A DNA stretch of 64,000 bases, taken from positions 6,152 to 70,151 of IMG/VR virus record IMGVR_UViG_3300021959_000028. One strand, 5' to 3'. Shown here in pieces: positions 5,211-31,481 of this stretch (the first letter of the stretch is position 1; every line of letters starts with the position of its first letter). The translations under genes were made by a program, and so were the position numbers. This DNA comes from a virus. The notes under the pieces are model-generated. The model was not told the origin of the DNA, made no database searches, and worked only from the letters and a program-made list of their open reading frames with translations.

Positions 5211-7612
5211 TATGCTCTCCTAATCGCTTCTCTACCCAAGTTATAATATTCGTCACCAGTAGTTCCGTATGCGTCTTGGCCGCCTTCACCTCTTGCCCAA
5301 GCCGATATCCCGCCTGCTCCTAACAAATGAGCTCCAAACAACAATCCTGCGATATGCTCTATATCATCGTTATCTGTAATAGCACCTCTTTGTCTTAAAA
5401 CTCTCAAATTAAAGTTTGCGTTTTCAATAACAGCAATTTCTTGACAGTTACCTTCATTACGCAACCAAGATTGGAAATTACTTGCACTATTTTTACCAGT
5501 CCAAACACTTGCATCTTGTAAAGCTCTGTTTCCTCTGTTGTATGTTCCAGCATTACAATAACCTAAAGTTTCAAGTGCAGCAGCACCAAATTGGTATTTT
5601 CCAGCAAATCCGATAGAATTAATTAATTCATATCTATTAGTACTTTCTCTAAATCCTAATGCTCCTGTCCAAGCTCTAGTTTGCTCCATCGTAAATCCAT
5701 TTATAGGCTGTGGTACATCTCCTTGATTTGGCTCTCCAATTGATCCTGTAAATTCTTGTGCAGTTGCAGCACTTACTCCTGATTGGCTAGGAGGCGCTAA
5801 ACGGTCTGCTCCTCCGCCGCCTGTTGATGATGGTGGAACTGATTGTGCTTGTGGATTATATCTTGATCCCGAACTTGTGCTATATCCACTTTTTCTAAAA
5901 GTGTCTTGCATCGGTGCAACTAAAGTTTCTGGTAATTGACCAGTTGCTTCTCTGTCAGTTTCTAAAGGTTTATATGCAATAGGGTTTAAGTTTTCGTGCT
6001 GCACATAAGGCTCATGTGTTGGCATACGCTTAACTATACTTTCTATTGTAAATGTAGTTAATGTTCCTGGTTCAACAGCAGGTAAGTTATGTCTTGTAAG
6101 GGGAATAACATCTGACGCACTCGCTGCTTGTGTGCCTGCAGATGATAACCCACTATCTAAAAATATCTCACTAGCGTCAGCAGCAATAACACCAGATGCC
6201 TGCATTGATATGCTCGATCCTGATTGTTCGTAAATTCCGCTTCCTGCAACAGTATGAGAACTTGTGCTTGTAGTTAAGTAATGCGATCCTCCAGCTTTAT
6301 GATGGCTATCAACATTTACTGTAACATACAAATCTCCTAATATGTGCTCATCACTTTGTCCTAGTACCGTTTTCTTAAAATTTTGTTCTACAAGTATATC
6401 TGTATCATACTTACTTTCAATATTAACACAGCCTGACAAGAATCCTCTAGAATCTGTTGGAGCATATTCGCTATATCTTGCACTTGCTCTAGCATTAATA
6501 TTTCTTCCAGCTTCTAAATTAATATCTCTATTAGCAGTTATGTTTAAATCTGCATCAGAATGTATACTAATACTATCTCTTCCATAAACATCTATTTTTC
6601 CATCGCTAGACATTTCTATCCAAGAAGTTCCTCTGCTATTAGCAATATAAATTAAATCTTCCGAATTATGCATTAAGATTTGATGGCCTGTTCTAGTTCT
6701 TAATCTTATATGCTCATTGTGAGGAATTGTTTTGTCTCCGCCTGTAGAACCAGACTCTACATTTATGTATTTCGGAGGACCTTCGCTTGCATGTGTTTCT
6801 CTTAGGAACTTATCATCGCCGTCATCCATGACAAAACTGCTTCCGCCTAGGCGGTTTACAAATATGTTTGCTTTTTGATCGTGTTCTCCGTATAATCCCT
6901 TTGGAGCACCGTCTCTTTTATCAACCGGGCCTGGTGTACTCCAACCAAAAACCATACTTGGAACTTCTCGACGAGCACTAGTTGTTGTAGTTCCTCTAGT
7001 TTCGTCGCTTATTAAACCTTGTATTTCTAAACTTTGTGCAAAATCTTTATTATAAGGTTTTCTAAATTGTGTAGGATCTCTTCCTGCGCCAGGATCAATT
7101 TGTTTATTAAATTCACCTACTGGTAATTTTTTACCTTGTAATTCATTAGGAACCGCAGTTGTAAGTTCTGTACTTGCACGACCATCAGGAACCATAAAGT
7201 TCATATATCTATCTTGTATACAACCTATCCAAAATCCTTGAGAAATATCGCCTTCGGCAAATACAACTAAAACTCTAGTATTCGGATCAGGAGGAACTGC
7301 CCACATTCCATAACTTTTTTGAGTATATTCGTAACCGTCATTTGCACTTGCATTACTAAATGCTGTTACACCATAAAACGGACTGAGATATCTAACTTCA
7401 ATTAATTGTCCAGTTCTTTCAGGTGCTGCACCACTTTTAGTTTTCTTTAAAAGTTCTACTTTTAATGCACCCATATATTGCGGATCAAGATGACTAACAA
7501 CAATTGCTTCATAAGGACCTGGATCCATACGTCCGCTAGTACGGGCGCCACCTGTTAAGTGTGCTGCCTGAGCTGTTTGTGTTGCACCTTTTATCCTACT
7601 GGTATCTGGCAT
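5210..7612 (-). CDS. Baseplate central spike, gp5/VgrG-like, with a C-terminal lysozyme-like domain
   Basis: OB-fold region (DPQYMGALKV...SYGMWAVPPDPNTRVLVVFAEG), beta-helix repeats (RTRTGHQILMHNSE, SIHSDADLNITANRDINLEAGRNIN) and C-terminal ALGFRES...GFAGKYQFG...HLLGAGG. Confidence 0.8.
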   Translation of the reverse strand: MPDTSRIKGATQTAQAAHLTGGARTSGRMDPGPYEAIVVSHLDPQYMGALKVELLKKTKSGAAPERTGQLIEVRYLSPFYGVTAFSNASANDGYEYTQKSYGMWAVPPDPNTRVLVVFAEGDISQGFWIGCIQDRYMNFMVPDGRASTELTTAVPNELQGKKLPVGEFNKQIDPGAGRDPTQFRKPYNKDFAQSLEIQGLISDETRGTTTTSARREVPSMVFGWSTPGPVDKRDGAPKGLYGEHDQKANIFVNRLGGSSFVMDDGDDKFLRETHASEGPPKYINVESGSTGGDKTIPHNEHIRLRTRTGHQILMHNSEDLIYIANSRGTSWIEMSSDGKIDVYGRDSISIHSDADLNITANRDINLEAGRNINARASARYSEYAPTDSRGFLSGCVNIESKYDTDILVEQNFKKTVLGQSDEHILGDLYVTVNVDSHHKAGGSHYLTTSTSSHTVAGSGIYEQSGSSISMQASGVIAADASEIFLDSGLSSAGTQAASASDVIPLTRHNLPAVEPGTLTTFTIESIVKRMPTHEPYVQHENLNPIAYKPLETDREATGQLPETLVAPMQDTFRKSGYSTSSGSRYNPQAQSVPPSSTGGGGADRLAPPSQSGVSAATAQEFTGSIGEPNQGDVPQPINGFTMEQTRAWTGALGFRESTNRYELINSIGFAGKYQFGAAALETLGYCNAGTYNRGNRALQDASVWTGKNSASNFQSWLRNEGNCQEIAVIENANFNLRVLRQRGAITDNDDIEHIAGLLFGAHLLGAGGISAWARGEGGQDAYGTTGDEYYNLGREAIRRA

Positions 7613-8192: not shown

Positions 8193-11100
8193 TTACCCCG
8201 ATCTTCCTGGCGGTATTCTACCGTCTCTTGCACCTGTATATGTGCCGCCTTCGTTAGCACCTGCTGAGAAGTGCATCGCATCTTTAGAACTACGCCATGC
8301 ACCGCCCCAACCTAAACCGTGTTTTGCTGCTAATGCTCTCATTAAACTTCCTGTACCGTTTGCTGGCATATCTGTAACAAGTGGACCTGGCTTCATGTGA
8401 CCGTTTTGTGCAGGGTTAATATCAATAGCAAGTCCCATACTGTGCCAACTTCGTGTTCCTGTACCTGCAATATTTCTGTCTGATAGACCACCTATACTTC
8501 TAATTTCGTATCCTAATTCACCTTCAAGTTCGTCTACTAAACCTTGGAAATTTTCTGCATATAATTGAGCAACTGTTGCTGTTCTACCACCAGGAGTTCT
8601 AATTGTTGCTGTAGGACCTTCAGCTCCTGAATTACCAGGAACCGGAGTTGGAGCAGCAGTGCCTCCTGTTGAACCTAAACTCTGAGCACTTGAAGGGCCA
8701 GTTCCAGAACCACCTCCTGCACCGCCCCCTGGAACAGCAGCACCAGTTCCATTTGTAGCAGGGCCTCCAGGTGTTCCTGCTACACCAGCAGTACCTTCGT
8801 TGACTCTTCCTAATTCTGTTGTTGTTCCTTGTTGTGATATTAATCTCTCATTTGCAGCACCTTCGAGATTTTGATTTCGAACACGCAACATTTTTAATTC
8901 TTGTGTAAATCTTCCATTGTTAAATTTATGTAGGACTTCAAGTACTTGATACAATCCTCCAAAATTTTGTAAATCAGTAATTATATCTTCTTGAAAAACC
9001 ATTAAACCTGTAGACTCATTATAATCAATAGGAGTTCTAAATTTTAATAATGCATGTACTTGACTATATTGATAATCAATGCCGCCATCAGCAGTAATAT
9101 TAATACTAGGTCCTGCGGCAGCGGTGTAATTACCTACTCCAGTATCCGGAATGTAATAAGGATCTCCCCAAATTTCCATATCAACTTGCAGTAAGTCTAC
9201 ACCATCTAAAATAGTACCATGGAATTGTCGAGCAATTTGTTCTGCTACATTAGAATCATACGAGCCGCCTGCGCCCATTGACGCTCCACTTCCGAGGTAT
9301 GCTTTTGCACCTTCTTGTGCTGCGCCTGCAGGTGTTCCCATCTGAGCAGGAACTTCTGTTATAGCACTAGTGTTATCAGAACCCCCTGTGTTAGTACCTC
9401 TGTTAGAGTTTCCTAAACCTGCATTTATCATATCGTAAAAAGCAGCCTTAAACTCAAAATCTAAACTAAGAATATCTCTATTAAGACCAGTATATACATA
9501 ATTGTATTCTTTAACTACTTGTCTAGATAAGTTTGACGTGTTTGGTGTTGGATTATCTGGTGTACTAAATTTATCAGAACTTACCATATAAGGAACTACT
9601 TTGTAAACATAAATTCTAGGTTTACGTCCAAGAATTGATTCAGTAGCAGGTGCAGAAATTGGATAAACTTCTGATTCAACCTTAAACCAAGGTATGTTAC
9701 CATCTTGGTTTATTAAAGTCATTGCTGTCCTACCATAATCGCTAATAAGTACCATCTCTTCTATGATTTCTTGTATTGTCATATTTTGAGGAAATTTAAA
9801 AGTTCTATTTGTATTCGATATAGTTAATTCGATTCCGTTTCTACTAAAAACACCTGTCTCTTCATTAAGTGTAAATCCAGCATGTCCGAACGGATTATCG
9901 CCCGAAGCATTAAAGTCAGTAATAATTTGAGAATTACCAATAGGATTTACATCAGATATTCCTTGTAAATTTAGACTATCAAACAGTTGAGATGCTTCTT
10001 GCGAAACACTTGCAGTTAAAGTAGAGCTGTCTAATCCTGCTGCTCTTGCAAGAGCCGGATCAACTTGTCCTCGACCATATCCTACTCCAGCAACTTGGTT
10101 AGTGATTCCAGCATACCAATCTGTAACTACACTTTGCAAGTTATTTCTGAATTCTTCTCCACGTCTTTCAGCAACTTGTTCAGCTGCTGATAATAATCCA
10201 GGATCTACCGTTGCAGACCCTCCTACTGAACTAGATGGTGTATCTTGTTGATTTTCTCTAGTTAGAGGAAATGTTATCAAATACAAATCAGCTCTGTCAA
10301 TATTAGTCGATTCTTCAAATGATTGCTGTCTCTCGTTAATTGTAGATGCTAAACTTGCTGTTCCAAATCCTAACGATTCTGCAACAGTTGGTCCTGTAAA
10401 ATTTGTTTCAAAAGGAATTCGTTGGACTTCGTCTGAAAACGCATGATCGTTTATCGGAACTGCCTCAACTGTATAAACCGATCCTGCACCGTCAACACTA
10501 AACTCTGCATTAATAAGTCTAAAAGGAATATTTTTAGTTGTGTCTTCAATGTTTTGCGGGTTTCCGTTATTTTCGTCAAACCCTACAAATTGTATAGTTA
10601 ACAAATAATTTGCATCTGTATGGTTTGCATAACCGCAGGCCGTTGCTGCACCTTGCATAGATAATAACCATTGTCCAATACTGTAAGGTTCTATAATTTT
10701 AAAACTAATTTTTGTTCCGGTTGAAACACCTGATGATCTATTAGGACTTAATACACTTTTAAGTTCAACATCATCGATAAAATATTCTACTCTTCTTCCA
10801 GATGCTAACTCAAAATAATTTTGTACTCGTTTACCATTTATGCCACCGCCGCCAGATCTTAAAACTGTAACAGCCGGTCCGCCAGATCTATAAGAACTAG
10901 GAGAGACTACTTGATCATCTGACAAACAACCAATAGTAAAAATACAGTTATAAGAAGCATAATTTTCTAAAGGATTGCCTAGTCGTACATTTGGTCCTGG
11001 AGTATTAGATATTACACTTCCAGAACCTCCTGATGCTTGAAAAGAGTTACCTGTAATTCCTACAAGTTCAGAAAATGTACTTGCAACTGCACCTCCAAGT

Positions 11101-11432
11101 GCGCCAATGGGATTACTTGCAGCATTTCCAAGAAATGCACTGACCGAAGATACTGCTGAACTAACACTAAAGTTGGGCATAAATTCTCTAAGGTCTCCTG
11201 TTTGAAGTCCTTGTTGTACTTGTCCAAAAGAAGATTGTACTTGAGAAACTGTTGACTCTACATCTCCAGCAAACGAAGAAGCTTGGTCTTCAAGAACTCT
11301 AACATTATTAGATAAAAAACTTCCTGTATCTCTAAATAAAGAATTTCCAAAGTCTGATACACTATTAAACGAAGCACCTAAATCGTTAGTTAGAGTATTA
11401 ATTTTGTTGCTTATAATATTACCTATGTTCAT
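8193..11432 (-). CDS. Baseplate hub-like protein (gp27-like by position) with a C-terminal M15 zinc peptidase domain
   Basis: C-terminal R...SWHSMGLAIDIN...WGGAW...DAMHFS is the M15 (SxHxxGxAxD) motif. The body ends in IWGDPY...GLYQVLEVLHKFNNGRFTQEL, typical of hub/late-control-D folds. Confidence 0.7.
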   Translation of the reverse strand: MNIGNIISNKINTLTNDLGASFNSVSDFGNSLFRDTGSFLSNNVRVLEDQASSFAGDVESTVSQVQSSFGQVQQGLQTGDLREFMPNFSVSSAVSSVSAFLGNAASNPIGALGGAVASTFSELVGITGNSFQASGGSGSVISNTPGPNVRLGNPLENYASYNCIFTIGCLSDDQVVSPSSYRSGGPAVTVLRSGGGGINGKRVQNYFELASGRRVEYFIDDVELKSVLSPNRSSGVSTGTKISFKIIEPYSIGQWLLSMQGAATACGYANHTDANYLLTIQFVGFDENNGNPQNIEDTTKNIPFRLINAEFSVDGAGSVYTVEAVPINDHAFSDEVQRIPFETNFTGPTVAESLGFGTASLASTINERQQSFEESTNIDRADLYLITFPLTRENQQDTPSSSVGGSATVDPGLLSAAEQVAERRGEEFRNNLQSVVTDWYAGITNQVAGVGYGRGQVDPALARAAGLDSSTLTASVSQEASQLFDSLNLQGISDVNPIGNSQIITDFNASGDNPFGHAGFTLNEETGVFSRNGIELTISNTNRTFKFPQNMTIQEIIEEMVLISDYGRTAMTLINQDGNIPWFKVESEVYPISAPATESILGRKPRIYVYKVVPYMVSSDKFSTPDNPTPNTSNLSRQVVKEYNYVYTGLNRDILSLDFEFKAAFYDMINAGLGNSNRGTNTGGSDNTSAITEVPAQMGTPAGAAQEGAKAYLGSGASMGAGGSYDSNVAEQIARQFHGTILDGVDLLQVDMEIWGDPYYIPDTGVGNYTAAAGPSINITADGGIDYQYSQVHALLKFRTPIDYNESTGLMVFQEDIITDLQNFGGLYQVLEVLHKFNNGRFTQELKMLRVRNQNLEGAANERLISQQGTTTELGRVNEGTAGVAGTPGGPATNGTGAAVPGGGAGGGSGTGPSSAQSLGSTGGTAAPTPVPGNSGAEGPTATIRTPGGRTATVAQLYAENFQGLVDELEGELGYEIRSIGGLSDRNIAGTGTRSWHSMGLAIDINPAQNGHMKPGPLVTDMPANGTGSLMRALAAKHGLGWGGAWRSSKDAMHFSAGANEGGTYTGARDGRIPPGRSG

Positions 11433-13694: not shown

Positions 13695-14705
13695 TTGTTT
13701 AAAAAAGCAGCAGTCTTTACAGACATACATTTTGGTCTTAAAGGCAATTCTAAAGTACACAATCAAGATTGTGAAGATTTTATAGATTGGTATATTGATA
13801 CTGCAAAAGCTGCCGGTTGCGAAACTGGTATCTTCTGCGGTGACTGGCACCACAACCGTAATAGTCTAAATTTGACAACTATGGATGCAACAATTCGTAG
13901 TATGGAAAAACTAGGTCAAGCATTTGAAAAATTTTACTTTTTTGATGGCAATCACGACTTGTACTATAAAGATAAACGAGACGTAAACAGTACAGCCTTT
14001 GCAAAACACATTCCGGGTATTACATTTATTGATAAAATTTATGTAGAGGAAGATGTAGCACTTGTTCCGTGGTTAGTTGGCGACGAATGGAAGAAAATGG
14101 AAACTATCGAAGCAAAATATTTGTTTGGTCATTTTGAACTTCCTAGTTTTTATATGAATGCAATGGTACAAATGCCAGATCACGGAGATCTTAAAGTAGA
14201 ACACTTTAAGAATCAAGACTATGTATTCTCAGGACACTTCCATAAACGTCAAAAGCAAGGAAAAGTGCATTATATCGGTAATGCTTTTCCACATAACTAT
14301 GCAGATGCTTGGGATGACGACCGTGGTATGATGATACTCGACCGTGAGAACGATGCAGAGCCAGAGTATATCAACTGGCCAGGGTGTCCTAAGTATCGTA
14401 CAGTTAAACTATCACAACTAATTGACGAAAAAGACACACTTATCAAGCCAAATATGTATTTGAGAGTAACACTTGACTTACCAATTAGTTATGAAGAAGC
14501 AAGTTTTATTAAAGAAACCTTTATTGATCAATACGGTTGTAGAGAAATTACATTAATTCCTCAAAAACATCTTGAAGAAATTAATTCAGAACTTGATATT
14601 AGTGCATTTGCTAGTGTTGATCAAATTGTTAGTGAAGAAATAGCATTACTAGATACTGACAACTTTAATAAAAAGACACTTTTAGACATTTATAACGGAC
14701 TGTAA
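13695..14705 (+). CDS. Recombination nuclease, T4 gp47 (Mre11/SbcD-like)
   Basis: Metallophosphoesterase motifs DIHFG, GDWHHNR, GNHD and SGHFH. TTG start after GAGG. Confidence 0.92.
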   Translation: MFKKAAVFTDIHFGLKGNSKVHNQDCEDFIDWYIDTAKAAGCETGIFCGDWHHNRNSLNLTTMDATIRSMEKLGQAFEKFYFFDGNHDLYYKDKRDVNSTAFAKHIPGITFIDKIYVEEDVALVPWLVGDEWKKMETIEAKYLFGHFELPSFYMNAMVQMPDHGDLKVEHFKNQDYVFSGHFHKRQKQGKVHYIGNAFPHNYADAWDDDRGMMILDRENDAEPEYINWPGCPKYRTVKLSQLIDEKDTLIKPNMYLRVTLDLPISYEEASFIKETFIDQYGCREITLIPQKHLEEINSELDISAFASVDQIVSEEIALLDTDNFNKKTLLDIYNGL

Positions 14706-15256
14706 TGATTGTAACTGGTAATAAAAACGAACACTTTGCAAAAAGTTTGTTTAAGCTATATCCTGAAGCAGTTTTTGTTAGCAGACAGTCAGGTTACGAC
14801 TTAACAAAAAAAGACGATCAAACAAAATTTGCAAATGAGTGTCTAAATCACAAAACTATTATAATTATGAGCGCACTATGGCGATTTAATCAAACAGTTT
14901 TACTAGATTTAGTTTATAAAACGTGTGTAGAAAATAATCATCGTCCGCATATTGTAACAATAGGCAGTACAACTGATAGAGTTAAAAATGGAAAGCCATG
15001 GTTATACAATGCAGAGAAAAAAGCACTAAGAGATTACTCAAATACGCTTGCATTAGGCGGAGTTTGGGATTCAAAACCAAAAATTACGTATATTAGCTTC
15101 GGAACTCTATCTAATAATCAGCAAAAACATCCTGAAAGAAGATGTTTAGACATTGATAATGCAGCTACGTACATAAAATGGGTGTTGGAACAACCAAAAG
15201 ATATCGCAATTAACGAAATTAGTATAGATCCTATTCAAAAGGTAGAAAATGATTAA
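14705..15256 (+). CDS. Short-chain dehydrogenase/reductase-like Rossmann protein
   Basis: IVTG start, SRQSGYDL, HIVTIGS, YNAEKKAL (YxxxK) and C-terminal INEISIDP. Confidence 0.65.
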   Translation: MIVTGNKNEHFAKSLFKLYPEAVFVSRQSGYDLTKKDDQTKFANECLNHKTIIIMSALWRFNQTVLLDLVYKTCVENNHRPHIVTIGSTTDRVKNGKPWLYNAEKKALRDYSNTLALGGVWDSKPKITYISFGTLSNNQQKHPERRCLDIDNAATYIKWVLEQPKDIAINEISIDPIQKVEND

Positions 15257-17021
15257 AATTAAAGATCTTACAGTAAAAAACTTTATGAGTGTAGGTAATC
15301 AAACTCAAGCAGTTGACTTTGATCAACAAGATCTTACACTTGTACTTGGAGAAAATTTAGATCAAGGCGGAGACGACAGTGGATCACGCAATGGTACAGG
15401 TAAAACTACTATCATTAATGCTCTAAGTTATGCATTATATGGTCAAGCACTTACAAATATCAAAAGAAACAACTTGATTAACAAAACTAACAGCAAAGGC
15501 ATGTTAGTTACTCTAACTTTTGAAAAAGATAATTTAAATTACAAAATTGAACGTGGACGTTCTCCGAATGTTCTTAAGTTTTTTATTAATAACGAAGAAC
15601 AAGATTTAACTGACGAAAGCCAAGGCGACAGTCGTAAAACGCAAGAAGATATTAATGACTTGTTAGGCATGAGTCATGATATGTTTAAACATATTGTAGC
15701 ACTGAATACATATTCAGAGCCTTTTTTGTCAATGCGGGCTAATGATCAACGTGCTATTATCGAGCAATTACTCGGAATTACTATTCTTACAGAAAAGTCT
15801 GAAGTACTTAAAGAGCAAATACGTCAAACTAAAGATTATATCACACAAGAAACTCTTAAGATTGATGCAATACAGGCATCTAATTCAAAAATTCAAACTA
15901 CAATCGATAACTTAGCAAAAAATCAACGTGCTTGGAAGGCAAAACAAAAAACAGATGTCGAAAAACTACAGTTTGCTATTAGCGAACTAGAACATCTAGA
16001 TATTGATGCAGAACTTGAGTCACATGATAAACTACAAAACTGGACTGAACTAAATGCTGCGATTACTGCTCTTAATAAAGAAAAGGGCACACTCGAAGCA
16101 GCACTGTTACGTGCAACAAAAAGTGTAGAAAAGGCAGAAAATGATATTTCTGGTCTAGACGAAGCTACATGTTATACCTGCGGTCAAGCACTACACGACG
16201 ACAAAAAAGAAGAACTTGAAGCTCGAAAAGCTAAAGAACTTGAAGATGCATTATCATACCAGACCGAAGTTGCAAATAAACTTAATGAGGTTATGGCAGG
16301 ACTTAACGATATCGGTGATATCAACGGACGTCCTAAAACGTTTTATGAAAATATGAAGGAAGCCTACGAACATCGAAACAACGTAGATAACTTAAAACAA
16401 ACACTGATAAGTAAAGAACAAGAAGAAGATCCTTATCAGGCACAAATTGACGAACTAACCAATACTGCACTTCAAGAAATCAACTGGAATCCGGTAAACG
16501 AACTTAATAATTTAAAAGATCATCAAGAATTTTTGCTAAAACTTCTTACTAATAAAGATAGTTTTATTCGTAAGAAAATTATTGATCAAAATCTTGCGTA
16601 CCTAAACAATAGACTTACATATTATTTGAACAAATTAGGTTTGCCTCATCAAGTTTCCTTTATGAATGACCTAAATGTTGAAATTACACAGTTAGGTCAA
16701 GATTTAGACTTTGATAATTTGAGCAGAGGCGAACGTAACAGGCTAATATTAGGATTAAGTTTTGCATTCCGCGACGTTTGGGAATCACTATACCAAAATA
16801 TTAATCTTTTGTTTATAGACGAACTTATCGATAGCGGCATGGATAGTGCAGGAGTTGAAAATTCAATTGCTGTACTTAAAAAGATGACTAGAGAACGTCA
16901 AAAAAACATTTTCCTTATTAGTCACAAAGACGAACTAATGGGAAGAGTTAATAATGTTCTCAAAGTTGTTAAAGAAAACGGATTTACAAGTTACGCAAAT
17001 GATTTAGAAATAGTAAACTAA
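15249..17021 (+). CDS. Recombination ATPase, T4 gp46 (Rad50/SbcC-like)
   Basis: Walker A NGTGKTT, zinc hook CYTC, signature LSRGE, Walker B FIDE and H-loop ISHK. Confidence 0.93.
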   Translation: MIKIKDLTVKNFMSVGNQTQAVDFDQQDLTLVLGENLDQGGDDSGSRNGTGKTTIINALSYALYGQALTNIKRNNLINKTNSKGMLVTLTFEKDNLNYKIERGRSPNVLKFFINNEEQDLTDESQGDSRKTQEDINDLLGMSHDMFKHIVALNTYSEPFLSMRANDQRAIIEQLLGITILTEKSEVLKEQIRQTKDYITQETLKIDAIQASNSKIQTTIDNLAKNQRAWKAKQKTDVEKLQFAISELEHLDIDAELESHDKLQNWTELNAAITALNKEKGTLEAALLRATKSVEKAENDISGLDEATCYTCGQALHDDKKEELEARKAKELEDALSYQTEVANKLNEVMAGLNDIGDINGRPKTFYENMKEAYEHRNNVDNLKQTLISKEQEEDPYQAQIDELTNTALQEINWNPVNELNNLKDHQEFLLKLLTNKDSFIRKKIIDQNLAYLNNRLTYYLNKLGLPHQVSFMNDLNVEITQLGQDLDFDNLSRGERNRLILGLSFAFRDVWESLYQNINLLFIDELIDSGMDSAGVENSIAVLKKMTRERQKNIFLISHKDELMGRVNNVLKVVKENGFTSYANDLEIVN

Positions 17022-17022
17022 T

Positions 17023-17253
17023 ATGGATGACATACACGACCAACTAGTACAGGCATATTTAGAATATTTTGCTGCTAACGAAGTGTGGGAGCGAAAAAAA
17101 TCTGTTAGAACATACGACAAAGTACAACAATGTATTAGAAAAGTTAAAAAACTAGCAGATGCTAGAAACAAAGAAATTAGGCAAATACAAAAAGCTAAAA
17201 AAGAGGCAATGCAAAAAGCCAAAAAAGAGGCAATACAAAAAGGCAATCTATAA
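17023..17253 (+). CDS. Small basic hypothetical protein
   Basis: 76 aa, starts 1 nt after gp46. C-terminal QKAKKEA(M/I) tandem repeat. Confidence 0.7.
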   Translation: MDDIHDQLVQAYLEYFAANEVWERKKSVRTYDKVQQCIRKVKKLADARNKEIRQIQKAKKEAMQKAKKEAIQKGNL

Positions 17254-17261
17254 GTACACTC

Positions 17262-17711
17262 ATGCAGTGGACTTATGAAGGGACGATTATAGACAAAATA
17301 CCAGACGAATACGAAGGCTTTGTTTATCTCATCACAAATAAAACTACTGGGCAAAAATACATAGGCAAAAAACTAGCCAAATTTAAAACTACTAAACCAC
17401 CACTCAAAGGCAAGAAAAATAAAAGACGTGGATACAAAGAGTCAGACTGGAAAGACTATTGGGGATCATCTGATAGACTCAACGCTGACGTCACTGCACT
17501 AGGCCCAGAAAATTTTACAAGAGAAATATTATATCTGTGTAAAAGCAGAGCAGAAATGTCCTATATCGAGGCAAGAGAGCAATTTGACCGCCGTGTATTA
17601 GAGAGCGATGAGTATTACAACGGAATTATAAATGTTAGAGTTGGCGGTTCAGATAAATTGCGCAAGGCATTGCTAGAGCATAGCATACAGGCAAAACAAT
17701 CCAACACATAA
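17262..17711 (+). CDS. Minimal GIY-YIG nuclease (Seg-like catalytic domain only)
   Basis: GFVYLITN...YIGKK, YWGSS, FTREIL, E(AREQ) and YYNG are all core GIY-YIG motifs. No obvious C-terminal DNA-binding domain. Confidence 0.85.
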   Translation: MQWTYEGTIIDKIPDEYEGFVYLITNKTTGQKYIGKKLAKFKTTKPPLKGKKNKRRGYKESDWKDYWGSSDRLNADVTALGPENFTREILYLCKSRAEMSYIEAREQFDRRVLESDEYYNGIINVRVGGSDKLRKALLEHSIQAKQSNT

Positions 17712-17714
17712 GGT

Positions 17715-18100
17715 TAGCGGGCCAGTTTGCAAATACCGCTGTGGAAAAAGCATCCGTATAGGAGCACACGTAACACGTTGAGCAGCGTTCGGTAGTAGAA
17801 CGTTTGATTGACGTAGACTGATTGTTGGCTGTCGAAAAACTGCACATTACACACAAAAACCCTTAGCACTAGGAACGAAGCGGGGGGTAATGTATTATAC
17901 AGAAAGCATAAGAGCGTCTTATGCACTCTATATAGTACATGATGTCGACGTAGGTTGGGAAAGGTCAGAGCCCATTGTGTAGCAGTATAACAAACACCTA
18001 CTTCCAAGTCTCGGCTGGTGGCGAACTCACATGAAGCTAATTTTTTGAGACGACGGGACCGTAACAGGTTCCGTCTGACTGAAACAATCTACATGAAACT
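17715..18100 (+). ncRNA. Putative large structured non-coding RNA of unknown family
   Basis: GC-richer intergenic tract with many stems: AGCGG/CCGCT, CGTTC/GAACG, a long hairpin at 17890-17940, GTAGGT/ACCTAC, GTCTC/GAGAC, GACGGGACC/GGTTCCGTC, and long-range GATTGTT/AACAATC. Confidence 0.6.
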
Positions 18101-18101
18101 T

Positions 18102-18221
18102 AAACATATACACTTCGTGTATATGTGTTTTCTCATAATAACTTATATCAAACAAACGAAGTGTATAGTTTGAGCGTTAGCGAAAACAAATATCTACGAA
18201 GTAGATATTAAGTAGATATTA
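18102..18221. repeat. Cluster of inverted repeats with C-GAA-G loops and repeated ACGAAGT cores
   Basis: CATATACAC-TTC-GTGTATATG (18105-18125), ACGAAGTGTATA (18156-18167), AATATCTAC-GAA-GTAGATATT (18189-18209) and a tandem AAGTAGATATTA. Confidence 0.8.
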
Positions 18222-18253
18222 AATAAATACAATACAATTAAGGATATCTCTAG

Positions 18254-18775
18254 ATGAAAATTGATGAAGTTACAGAATTGGATGAAGCTCCTGTAAGTGC
18301 AATTAAACAAAAAGCACAATCTATTGGGTCTCGTGTTTTAAATAAAGTTGGTGCTAAGGGAACAGCAGCTAATTTAGCAGGTAAAGCAGACTATGGTGCA
18401 ACTGCAAATAAGATATATCAGCAGTTTAATGCTTACCTTGGAACACAAGATAAAAATATTAAACAAGCTACAGGTATTGACTTAGATACATTTCTTAAAA
18501 GTAAAAAAATAAGAAGAAATGATATTCCTAACGGCGTGTTACAAAAAAATCAAATTAATGCTATTTTACAAGATGTTGCAAAACAAGCATTACAAAAGCA
18601 GCAAGGAGCAACTAGTAGTGCAACTCCTTCTGATACTAGTACAGATACTAAAGCAACAAAGCAAACATCAAAAGATACTCCAACTGGCGAAAAACCAAAA
18701 ATGCCTGCAGATTTATTAAAAAAATTAACAGCACTTTCGCCTGAAGAGAAAAAACAATTAGCGAGTATACTATGA
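18254..18775 (+). CDS. Probable internal head protein (late)
   Basis: TAAATA box upstream (18224) and AAGGA SD. N-terminus MKIDEVTELDEAP carries (I/L)xE prohead-protease-like sites. Basic body. Confidence 0.6.
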   Translation: MKIDEVTELDEAPVSAIKQKAQSIGSRVLNKVGAKGTAANLAGKADYGATANKIYQQFNAYLGTQDKNIKQATGIDLDTFLKSKKIRRNDIPNGVLQKNQINAILQDVAKQALQKQQGATSSATPSDTSTDTKATKQTSKDTPTGEKPKMPADLLKKLTALSPEEKKQLASIL

Positions 18776-30958: not shown

Positions 30959-31050
30959 TAAATACTTGTGTCAGATAGTGTGCCGCAAGGCGGACTTATG
31001 CTGTCCCAACAGCGTAGCGGCTAGAACCCGCATCGGACTTCTATAAAGGA
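30959..31050 (+). promoter_or_regulatory. Late promoter plus structured 5' leader RNA
   Basis: TAAATA at 30959. Stems GCC-GCAA-GGC, TATGCTGT-CCCA-ACAGCGTA and GCGG/CCGC are closed by GTCAGAT/ATCGGAC, just before the SD AAGGAG. Confidence 0.6.
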
Positions 31051-31058
31051 GAAAACAA

Positions 31059-31481
31059 ATGGGAAGACCATTAAATAAAAGATATTTTGGCCCACCAACA
31101 CCGGGCGGAAACGAAATTAAAGTACAGTTTTGGAACGGATCAGCTTCAGTTAACGGATGGATTGTAAAGCAAGTAGGATCAAAAAGATTCCTATGTTCAG
31201 ACGGTTCAAACGAAGAAGTTTGTGTTCTAGTAGACAAAGCTTCAGCTGCTATTACAGCAGGAGAAATGACAATTACAGTTCTTGATGATACTGCAACAGC
31301 ACGTCAAGTAACAAAAATTGCAGGACGCAAAGCTACACTTGATACAGGTGCAACAACTGCATGGACGTTTGATGATGCAAACAACGATGATAAAGTTGAA
31401 ATGGAAGAAGCAGGCGACGATACTACTATTGATGCAGGCGGTACAGACGAAGACGACTTCGAAACAGACGATCCAGCATAA
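31059..31481 (+). CDS. Hypothetical virion protein (possibly head-associated)
   Basis: MGRPLNKRYFG...WIVKQVGSKRFL. Strong SD. Follows the capsid gene. Confidence 0.75.
   Translation: MGRPLNKRYFGPPTPGGNEIKVQFWNGSASVNGWIVKQVGSKRFLCSDGSNEEVCVLVDKASAAITAGEMTITVLDDTATARQVTKIAGRKATLDTGATTAWTFDDANNDDKVEMEEAGDDTTIDAGGTDEDDFETDDPA

Follow-up and report, generated by a model that had tools for sequence, protein, structure and literature searches.

The DNA stretch analysed here, called the window below, comprises 64,000 nucleotides (nt) of one strand of the IMG/VR virus record IMGVR_UViG_3300021959_000028 (positions 6,152 to 70,151). We found that the region of about 17704-18097 in the window encodes a stand-alone, multiply pseudoknotted non-coding RNA, which we named the twin-box RNA. 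It is conserved, about 385 nt long (about 17704-18097, + strand), and lies directly 3' of a gene for a small GIY-YIG nuclease. The original prediction, made from the sequence alone, had described a minimal GIY-YIG gene followed by a structured RNA of a family it did not recognise, and had proposed the two as a candidate nuclease-RNA system. The structured RNA was borne out by covariation and fold energy, and its unrecognised family by the lack of an Rfam match; its place beside the nuclease gene, with no terminator between the two in the window, proved to be kept across a large phage clade; the idea of a dedicated nuclease guide fared worse, as described below.

A search of viral contigs with the nuclease gave 597 relatives, the best 80 of which were used. 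The DNA past the nuclease stop aligned to the window in 77 of the 80 loci; two further contigs stop short, and one locus (L044) differs. The resulting alignment A1 (43 distinct rows, an 85-pair structure) was compared with controls in which partners were shuffled (500 times) or slid. The results showed that 90.1% of pair cells were paired, versus 82.4% with shuffled partners (a value of 90.1% was reached in 0 of 500) and 32-43% with slid partners, and that compensatory changes on both sides occurred in 38 of the 85 pairs, versus 24.8 shuffled and 10-14 slid. Per-helix counts, made on 98 distinct full-length RNAs and given below, agreed with A1. The + strand folds at -114.2 kcal/mol with a z of -2.69, which none of 100 shuffles equalled, versus a z of -1.47 for the - strand, and G-U pairs are frequent on the + strand alone. 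Conservation is patchy, near-invariant segments (17944-17975, 18066-18097 and 17704-17745) alternating with the length-variable hairpin 17889-17941.

No consistent open reading frame (ORF) was found on either strand of the RNA region among the 98 relatives. A protein-coding reading was rejected: long open frames do occur, mostly on the - strand (91 of 98), yet their frame and ends differ between relatives, and we therefore take them as an effect of composition. At gathering scores, the sole Rfam match in the whole window is freshwater-2 at 30979. A search of 17000-18400 against 4227 Rfam families at E up to 10 returned six chance-level miRNA and HIV matches and nothing else, so that the RNA region matches no known family, and a tRNA/tmRNA search found none.

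The coordinates of all elements are given in Table 1. At the 5' boundary, conservation is 0.93-0.98 from 17690 onward, and CAUAAGG of the boundary word is kept in L056, where it lies past an inserted ORF, and in two contigs of small phages, L117 and L126, in which the upstream ORF continues across it. The 5' domain that follows takes at least four different forms in the relatives. Beyond it, the long-range helix H5 encloses H6, H7 and the near-invariant strand, and this strand pairs twice beyond H5, in PKa and PKb. All five ACACA/UGUGU pairs of H5 are compensated (91-98 of 95-98 paired), and the helix is kept with different sequences in L117 and L126. In H6, three pairs have 35, 18 and 8 compensatory cells, and L117 and L126 retain the loop word GGAACGA. 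H7 is loosely conserved (gaps 25-41%, identity 0.33-0.45), and the core strand has an identity of 0.91-1.00 among 46 sequences. PKa is paired in 98 of 98 RNAs with 8 compensatory cells, and its L126 version is GCAGGU/ACCUGU. Both H5 and PKa covary, and as they cross each other, this establishes a true pseudoknot. The helix GUAGGUUG/CAAUCUAC (18085-92), proposed by RNAalifold as a rival to PKa, was rejected on 7 uncompensated cells.

Two analogous units make up the 3' part. In each, a segment complementary to the invariant strand is followed by a short linker (CUC or UCU) and the same box of 7-10 nt, and the two segments match adjoining portions of that strand. The complementary segments are GGCU (18013-16) and UCUGACU (18074-80), and both pairings are invariant and beyond the reach of covariation. 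PKb, which contains the latter, is complementary in 98 of 98 RNAs and never varies; its pairing is predicted from complementarity, because invariant pairs give covariation nothing to test. H8 forms at least 5 contiguous base pairs in 87 of 98 RNAs versus 39 of 98 shuffled, with AGUCUCG/UGAGAUU replaced by AGUCUUG/CAAGAUU, and H9 is paired in 94-98 of 98, with 8 compensatory cells at its closing pair and frequent G-U/A-U exchanges.

Every sequence string quoted in the original prediction was found where that prediction had placed it, and nine of its eleven pairings are supported or invariant. Covariation supports AGCGG/CCGCT, the GCATCC..GGAGC hairpin, GCGTTC/GAACGT and the hairpin 17889-17941, as well as GTAGGT/ACCTAC (PKa), GTCTC/GAGAC (H8) and GACGGGACC/GGTTCCGTC. 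CTGCACA/TGTGTAG had captured the real long-range helix H5 in a register that was slightly off, and GGTCAGA/TCTGACT is the invariant PKb. The remaining two were discarded: GTCGA/TCGAC has 26 and 17 uncompensated A.C cells, and the supposed outer helix GATTGTT/AACAATC has one pair kept in just 45 of 98 RNAs, without compensation.

ACATGAA occurs twice in the RNA (18029 and 18091), as had been noticed earlier, and just one further copy exists in the 64 kb. We found that box 1 equals box 2 over 6 nt in 98 of 98 window-type RNAs and over 7 nt in 95 of 98, and that the matched pairs comprise seven variants (ACATGAA 74, ACATGAT 12, ACGTGAA 3, GCATAAA 2, GCATGAA 2, GTATGAA 1 and ACATAAA 1). In L126 both boxes read ACAGAAAG, and in L117 both read AUCAUCAAGU. 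Sister RNAs of the Polynucleobacter-1 type, described below, likewise repeat the 7-mer that follows CUC as box 2 (57 of 57), and ten variants of it occur, whereas control prefixes reach no more than 5/7. The changes are scattered across lineages, indicating that they arose many times. An association scan showed that box positions covary with the other box alone, with no third cis column. The spacing of the boxes varies between 56 and 68 nt. In most variants positions 4-6 are UGA or UAA, and no ORF is conserved at the boxes in the 98 relatives. The twin boxes are the only variable guide-like segments of the RNA, and a search for their target found none.

Two side observations concern the box sequence and its surroundings. 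The word CATG is about 4-fold depleted in the window (128 on both strands versus 519 expected from dinucleotides), which suggests restriction avoidance, and the scarcity of ACATGAA is mostly due to this general avoidance of CATG. The E. coli Chi word GCTGGTGG lies at 18014-18021 (+) in the H8 loop, near the gp46/47 genes, and is not conserved in relatives.

As the original prediction held, no terminator directly follows the nuclease stop: no terminator-like site was found on the + strand between this stop and 18104, and the first one lies at 18104-18126. It begins 7 nt past box 2, and all 10 of its stem pairs covary. In the conserved block downstream, the hairpin 18189-18209 covaries, and related words occur 3' of the RNA in L117 and L126; it is uncertain whether this block is part of the RNA unit. 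Eighteen RNA-labelled runs from several studies contain parts of the stretch, and metatranscriptome contigs from four runs of three studies span 17282-18174, covering both gene and RNA. No RNA contig joins box 1 to box 2.

Table 1. Features of the twin-box RNA locus in the window (PK, pseudoknot; H, helix or hairpin; aa, amino acids).
Feature	Position	Strand	Remarks
gp47/Mre11-like ORF	13695-14705	+	
gp46/Rad50-like ORF	15249-17021	+	AAA_23 and SMC_N
Conserved 76-aa ORF	17023-17253	+	complete in itself, variable tail at end
TA(A/T)(G/A)TA element, form TATAAGTA	17249-17256	+	5 nt 5' of ATG, promoter-like
149-aa SegE-type GIY-YIG nuclease gene, catalytic domain only	17262-17711	+	Pfam PF19835, phrog_447
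5' boundary word ACACAUAAGG	17704-17713	+	overlaps nuclease stop codon
Exchangeable 5' domain, four hairpins	17716-17833	+	covariation
H1	17716-20/17736-40	+	
H2; H2a	17741-43/17767-69; 17750-54/17761-65	+	
H3; inner hairpin	17775-81/17808-14; 17785-90/17798-803	+	
H4	17816-20/17829-33	+	
H5, long-range helix, CUGC..ACACA/UGUGU.GCAG	17840-53/17976-85	+	covariation
H6, hairpin, conserved loop ..AGGAACGAA..	17860-17886	+	covariation
H7, hairpin of variable length, short forms GAAA-capped	17889-17941	+	base pairs covary
Near-invariant core strand, 32 nt	17944-17975	+	bears 5' strands of PKa (17950-55) and PKb (17963-69)
PKa, GUAGGU/ACCUAC	17950-55/17996-18001	+	crosses H5
H8, GUCUC/GAGAC, loop contains box 1	18008-18051	+	covariation
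H9, hairpin, GACGGGACC/GGUUCCGUC	18052-18075	+	covariation
PKb, GGUCAGA/UCUGACU (predicted)	17963-69/18074-80	+	kept in L117 and L126
Twin box 1, ACAUGAA after CUC	18029-18035	+	in H8 loop
Twin box 2, ACAUGAA after UCU	18091-18097	+	conservation stops here
Intrinsic terminator, 10-bp stem, UUCG-type loop, U-rich tail	18104-18126, tail to 18133	+	terminator scan, covariation
Conserved downstream block: AAACGAAGUG, GUUUGAGCGUUAGCGAAAAC, AAACGAAGTG, GTTTGAGCGTTAGCGAAAAC, hairpin 18189-18209, T4-late-like TAAATAAATA	18154-18229	+	

The 17-mer 17957-73 was found exactly in at least 120 viral contigs, including phages with gp46 at 54-61% identity. About 18 of 77 related contigs end within the equivalent of 17746-17890, and several others at most 100 nt from this invariant 17-mer; these ends are probably assembly breaks at a sequence common to co-occurring strains. 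A second form of the 5' domain occurs in 14 loci and a third in L117 and L126. In L044, the 5' domain is the Polynucleobacter-1 motif (RF01718; 71.8 bits versus a threshold of 37 bits), whereas the window RNA gave no match to RF01718 in 17000-18400 at E up to 10. L126 (57 bits, E 1.2e-11) and L117 (29.8 bits, E 1.1e-4) were recovered with a covariance model built on the window-type 3' part. Three copies of a TGTACA-containing word, operator- or iteron-like in appearance, lie in the middle of the RNA region of L044 (L044:850-960).

A Polynucleobacter-1 pattern, the gap of which is 6 nt in L044, led to at least 119 further contigs. RNAs of this type extend about 200 nt past the RF01718 model, which spans only the 141-nt 5' part and lacks the twin boxes. 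Their 3' part contains CUC followed by a box, a hairpin (57 of 57), a 13-mer like GACUGAACAAUCU (at most 2 mismatches in 26 of 57), box 2 and the terminator. They thus share with the window RNA a two-unit 3' architecture with identical boxes that forms no part of the Rfam definition, and they occupy the corresponding position in sister phages, directly 3' of a gene of this GIY-YIG family, with gp47-gp46 farther upstream. The window RNA differs in having a 25-nt hairpin at the place of the motif, and its central 17-mer is absent from L044. Polynucleobacter-1 is an orphan candidate (Weinberg et al. 2010, PMC2864571), entered there under "Burkholderiales, fresh water/estuary" as a possible cis-regulator, and in the portions of the literature available this table row is the sole mention of it that we found. 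A catalogue of more than 10,000 candidate phage RNAs (PMC10690425) does not mention GIY-YIG in the available part of its text. Literature searches on structured RNAs with GIY-YIG in jumbo phages and on structured phage RNAs listed no publication on this RNA. Through blastn of the window RNA and the L044 RNA against 50,697 phage records, no RNA match was obtained, and bacterial genomes gave a single 19-mer match with unrelated surroundings, which we attribute to chance.

The nuclease matches PF19835 (SegE_GIY-YIG) with 120.7 bits versus a curated cut-off of 25 (E 5.7e-35), and residues 3-123 correspond to profile positions 1-123 of 123, so that the cut-off is exceeded across the whole domain. 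This full-length match within 149 aa agrees with the earlier description of a protein with the catalytic domain only. The match to phrog_447 has an E of 7.4e-39, and the phrog_447 profile is itself only 148 positions long. Candidate motifs can be read in the translation, namely GFVY (19-22), YIG (32-34), RR (55-56), the E in IEAREQF and the N in YYNG, and a PDB sequence search gave no match below E 0.39. The TATAAGTA element near the ATG, already pointed out in the original prediction, is conserved: TA[ATC][AG]TA was found 4-5 nt 5' of the nuclease ATG in 78 of 86 relatives, and a Shine-Dalgarno-like 4-mer before the ATG in just 1 of 86. Because of these two counts, TATAAGTA can reasonably be read as a promoter that would yield a leaderless or near-leaderless nuclease mRNA. 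The RNA would be made as the 3' part of this mRNA, starting at the element by the ATG and ending at 18104-18126.

The linkage of RNA and nuclease was followed from the RNA side. Among the matches listed, contigs found through the RNA core alone had the nuclease adjacent in 108 of 120; of the remaining 12, 10 extend no more than 307 nt upstream. The contigs found through the Polynucleobacter-1 pattern had the nuclease (52-95% identity) directly upstream in 75 of 119 among the matches listed, with gp46 further upstream in 53 of the 57 loci with enough upstream sequence. The DNA from gp46 to the nuclease gene is plastic, measuring about 0.05 to 4.5 kb. We also found 5 contigs, all from unrelated small phages (L117; L126, L203-205), that carry the RNA and no GIY-YIG gene. 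In them the RNA lies 3' of an unrelated ORF of 45-65 aa and 5' of terS/terL; in L126, a sigma-70-type promoter (TTGACA-17-TATAAT) stands ahead of the small ORF and the RNA. Phage Melnitz carries the same nuclease family without the RNA. In some relatives ORFs are inserted between nuclease and RNA, such as an 86-aa CxxC-motif ORF at L056:3422-3680, and others have an insert of about 0.8 kb. Since RNA and nuclease can each be present without the other, and since ORFs intervene, a dedicated guide RNA is not supported. All linked loci are syntenic (gp47-gp46-...-GIY-RNA), and the linkage may therefore be inherited rather than functional. Judged from this comparison, the nuclease appears to be a long-standing neighbour in the phage clade, possibly a client, and the RNA would be able to function without it.

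The parent viral contig of the window, from an uncultured marine giant phage, is 70 kb long with a completeness estimate of 19%. Related records of 115-168 kb are estimated to be 31-46% complete, which suggests a full genome of roughly 360 kb. The closest cultured phages by gp46 are the jumbo phages PA5oct, Phosso and Atu_ph07, with at most 48% identity. Past gp46, neither PA5oct nor Phosso carries a GIY homologue, a twin box or an Rfam match. A G+C-rich stretch of 1 kb without genes or an Rfam match (L334:7911-8924), which lies 1.6 kb past the gp46 homologue of Sinorhizobium phage Phosso, may be another non-coding RNA. On the + strand of the window, the gene order is the gp47/Mre11-like ORF, a 183-aa ORF, the gp46/Rad50-like ORF, the 76-aa ORF and the GIY-YIG ORF, followed by 542 gene-free nt and ORFs of 173 and 485 aa. 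The G+C content of 17600-18100 is 0.43-0.46 versus 0.28-0.39 around it, and an AT-rich stretch with conserved hairpins lies 3' of the RNA. Farther downstream, the freshwater-2 RNA (RF02980) at 30979-31061 (+) scores 75.7 bits versus a gathering score of 49.9, and its 3' end coincides with the ATG of the ORF 31059-31481. Very long ORFs (1549, 1507, 2418, 2052 and >1615 aa), presumably for virion/tail-fibre proteins, stand in series at 33686-64000 (+).

For the function of the RNA, our leading though still tentative reading, based on sequence comparison, is that it is an autonomous ornate non-coding RNA that presents two identical recognition arms to a partner in trans. In a mechanism that we put forward with low confidence, the core would be a rigid scaffold holding two identical single-stranded boxes side by side, and each box would bind a copy of the same nucleic-acid word, which would be lineage-specific and act in trans. 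The two copies could be a pair of repeats or both strands of an inverted repeat.

The association scan and searches for the exact reverse complement and with G-U allowed gave no partner of the boxes in cis, in keeping with a partner in trans. Several observations weigh against this reading. Loci of 4.7-15 kb contain no box reverse complement. Boxes acting as antisense to the nuclease start region were considered and rejected: UUCAUG makes the idea attractive in some loci, yet in 91 loci the box variants do not track the start region. The third ACATGAA of the window, at 8392-8398, belongs to a tail-lysin-like ORF, in a loop that is not conserved. The 11-mer 8390-8400 repeats the context of box 1 (11/11) within this 1079-aa ORF (8193-11432, -), which ends in a peptidase-M15-like domain (SWH..G.AIDI..GWGG), and is not conserved in L152 and L169. 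The boxes are taken to be single-stranded by inference, and box 1 of L044 lies in a hairpin loop. PKb and AGCC/GGCU, which would bring the boxes next to each other, are invariant and thus beyond covariation. Box identity could alternatively come from template realignment or recombination, with no common partner. The RNA-library contigs cannot give strand, ends, processing or level, and DNA carry-over is possible. Finally, the window-type 3' model finds just 2 of 97 Polynucleobacter-1-type loci at E below 0.01, and the superfamily link therefore rests mainly on architecture and is not statistically secured.

Five other explanations were weighed against the RNA with two recognition arms, among them the three roles suggested by the original prediction (scaffold or guide for the nuclease, ribozyme, replication primer RNA). 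The first is a replication or priming element, in which the transcript would re-anneal to its own DNA, out of register via a box, and prime DNA synthesis; ColE1 RNA II and the T4 R-loop origins are models for priming by RNA. The recombination/replication genes gp47 and gp46 adjoin, the AT-rich stretch with hairpins lies downstream, there is one RNA copy per record (up to 168 kb), and out-of-register RNA:DNA pairing needs identical boxes, as seen. However, a primer RNA does not require a near-invariant double-pseudoknot core of 36 nt, box spacing varies from 56 to 68 nt, neither an initiator gene nor an iteron array was seen, and in the small phages the RNA precedes terminase genes, away from replication genes. 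We consider this element unlikely.

A cis-acting 3' untranslated region or leader, which would guard or control the upstream mRNA or govern terminator read-through into late genes, is likewise an unlikely account. The RNA is always 3' of a same-strand ORF with a terminator at its end, box 2 of L126 can, by eye, be the 5' strand of a terminator-like stem, and Polynucleobacter-1 is listed as a possible cis-regulator in the table of PMC2864571. But the upstream ORFs are unrelated (GIY-YIG, the 86-aa CxxC protein, proteins of 45-65 aa), the downstream genes also differ, about 385 nt with an invariant core exceeds the needs of known protective or attenuator elements, and the identity of the boxes is left unaccounted for.

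Slightly less credible still is a self-processing ribozyme, possibly group I-derived, that would cut or join at the boxes, for example by trimming the 3' end of the nuclease mRNA or freeing the roughly 60-nt piece between the boxes. Group I introns have the helix order P3-P4/P6-P7-P3'-P8-P7' and often carry GIY-YIG genes, and the order H5(5')-H6-H7-PKb(5')-H5(3')-H8-PKb(3') resembles it; the core is near-invariant in distant phages, and H7 has GAAA caps. Against this, the region matches none of the intron and ribozyme models of Rfam at E up to 10, PKa and H9 are additions where group I introns carry short joiners, no box-complementary guide sequence was found, and no joint appears in the RNA contigs. 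The RNA also lacks flanking exons, the 76-aa ORF terminates itself with a variable tail, and a covarying terminator lies past box 2.

It is doubtful that the RNA is the partner of the nuclease, with boxes that would pair with both strands of an inverted-repeat DNA site and recruit the domain-less GIY-YIG enzyme. The adjacency survives deep divergence (GIY identity down to 52%, two RNA 5' domains), the nuclease has no DNA-binding domain, and the boxes are the sole fast-changing, lineage-specific part. Yet RNA and nuclease each occur alone, the linked loci are syntenic, arms of 7 nt would make a very short guide, the search for a target found none, and GIY-YIG proteins of about 148 aa are a widespread phage family in their own right. 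Were the RNA a specificity module of the GIY-YIG protein, which we hold to be improbable, its nuclease-free copies in small phages would serve another client.

Least credible of the five is a template RNA with terminal repeats, of which a polymerase would copy the inter-box stretch and re-align box 1 to box 2, as in realignment and rolling reverse transcription by telomerase and defence reverse transcriptases with their non-coding RNAs. Identical words bracketing a stretch of 47-68 nt are what realignment demands, but a search of 6 records (70-168 kb, 19-46% complete) turned up no reverse transcriptase gene (PF00078), the inter-box stretch is structural (H9, PKb), and the records have no tandem copies of the unit. 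A split gene or intron was rejected, the 76-aa ORF being complete with no coding exon following, as was a translational bypass cassette of the T4 gene 60 type, in which matched take-off and landing codons lie in an ORF that resumes past a gap, because no conserved ORF enters or leaves the identical words and their spacing is not fixed.

Compared with known systems, the locus shares features with several. T4 td/I-TevI is a group I intron with a GIY-YIG homing endonuclease gene, and like such introns the locus combines a GIY-YIG ORF with a large pseudoknotted RNA, a P3/P7-like crossing and a GNRA-capped hairpin. Unlike them, the window RNA has no exons, internal guide or match to the Rfam Intron_gpI model (E up to 10), it has an extra pseudoknot and hairpin, and the ORF precedes the whole fold instead of lying in a loop. 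The topology is similar to that of a P3/P7 pseudoknot around a P4-P6 domain, but PKa, H9 and a 22-nt joiner are additional, and a G-binding site is not identifiable. With telomerase and defence reverse transcriptase template RNAs, the RNA shares two identical short words that bracket a defined stretch; it differs in that no reverse transcriptase gene was found in the 6 records and the bracketed stretch belongs to the fold.

IscB and TnpB systems consist of a RuvC-type nuclease, an omega-RNA with a guide that matches flanking DNA, and a transposon end. They resemble the locus in having a structured RNA by a small nuclease gene and a short variable segment at the RNA end. The window nuclease has a GIY-YIG rather than a RuvC fold, the locus lacks a transposon end and a HEARO match (E up to 10), the boxes have no complement nearby, the variable segment is duplicated within the RNA, and the RNA is not restricted to nuclease loci. 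If the partner of the boxes were DNA or the neighbouring nuclease, the RNA would be of biotechnological interest, and a GIY-YIG nuclease aimed by RNA would represent a new class of RNA-directed DNA recognition, outside RuvC/HNH and Argonaute.

The available part of the report on the ornate RNAs GOLLD and ROOL (bioRxiv 10.1101/2024.12.08.627333) describes RNAs that share with the twin-box RNA its size class, many pseudoknots and the association with phages. The window RNA differs in that it has no sequence or model match to them and does not lie beside tRNAs. To our knowledge, GOLLD and ROOL have not been reported to carry direct repeats that evolve in concert. With the twin-box RNA, marine, estuarine and freshwater phages gain a large, abundant, uncatalogued RNA family, which is present in at least 200 viral contigs. 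It suggests that an orphan Rfam motif of 2010 represents no more than the 5' portion of a longer RNA with the same architecture. It also displays an evolutionary signature beyond base-pairing, two direct words that always mutate together, and this twin-box signature provides a direct experimental handle, of a kind that few such RNAs offer, on the function of an ornate phage RNA.

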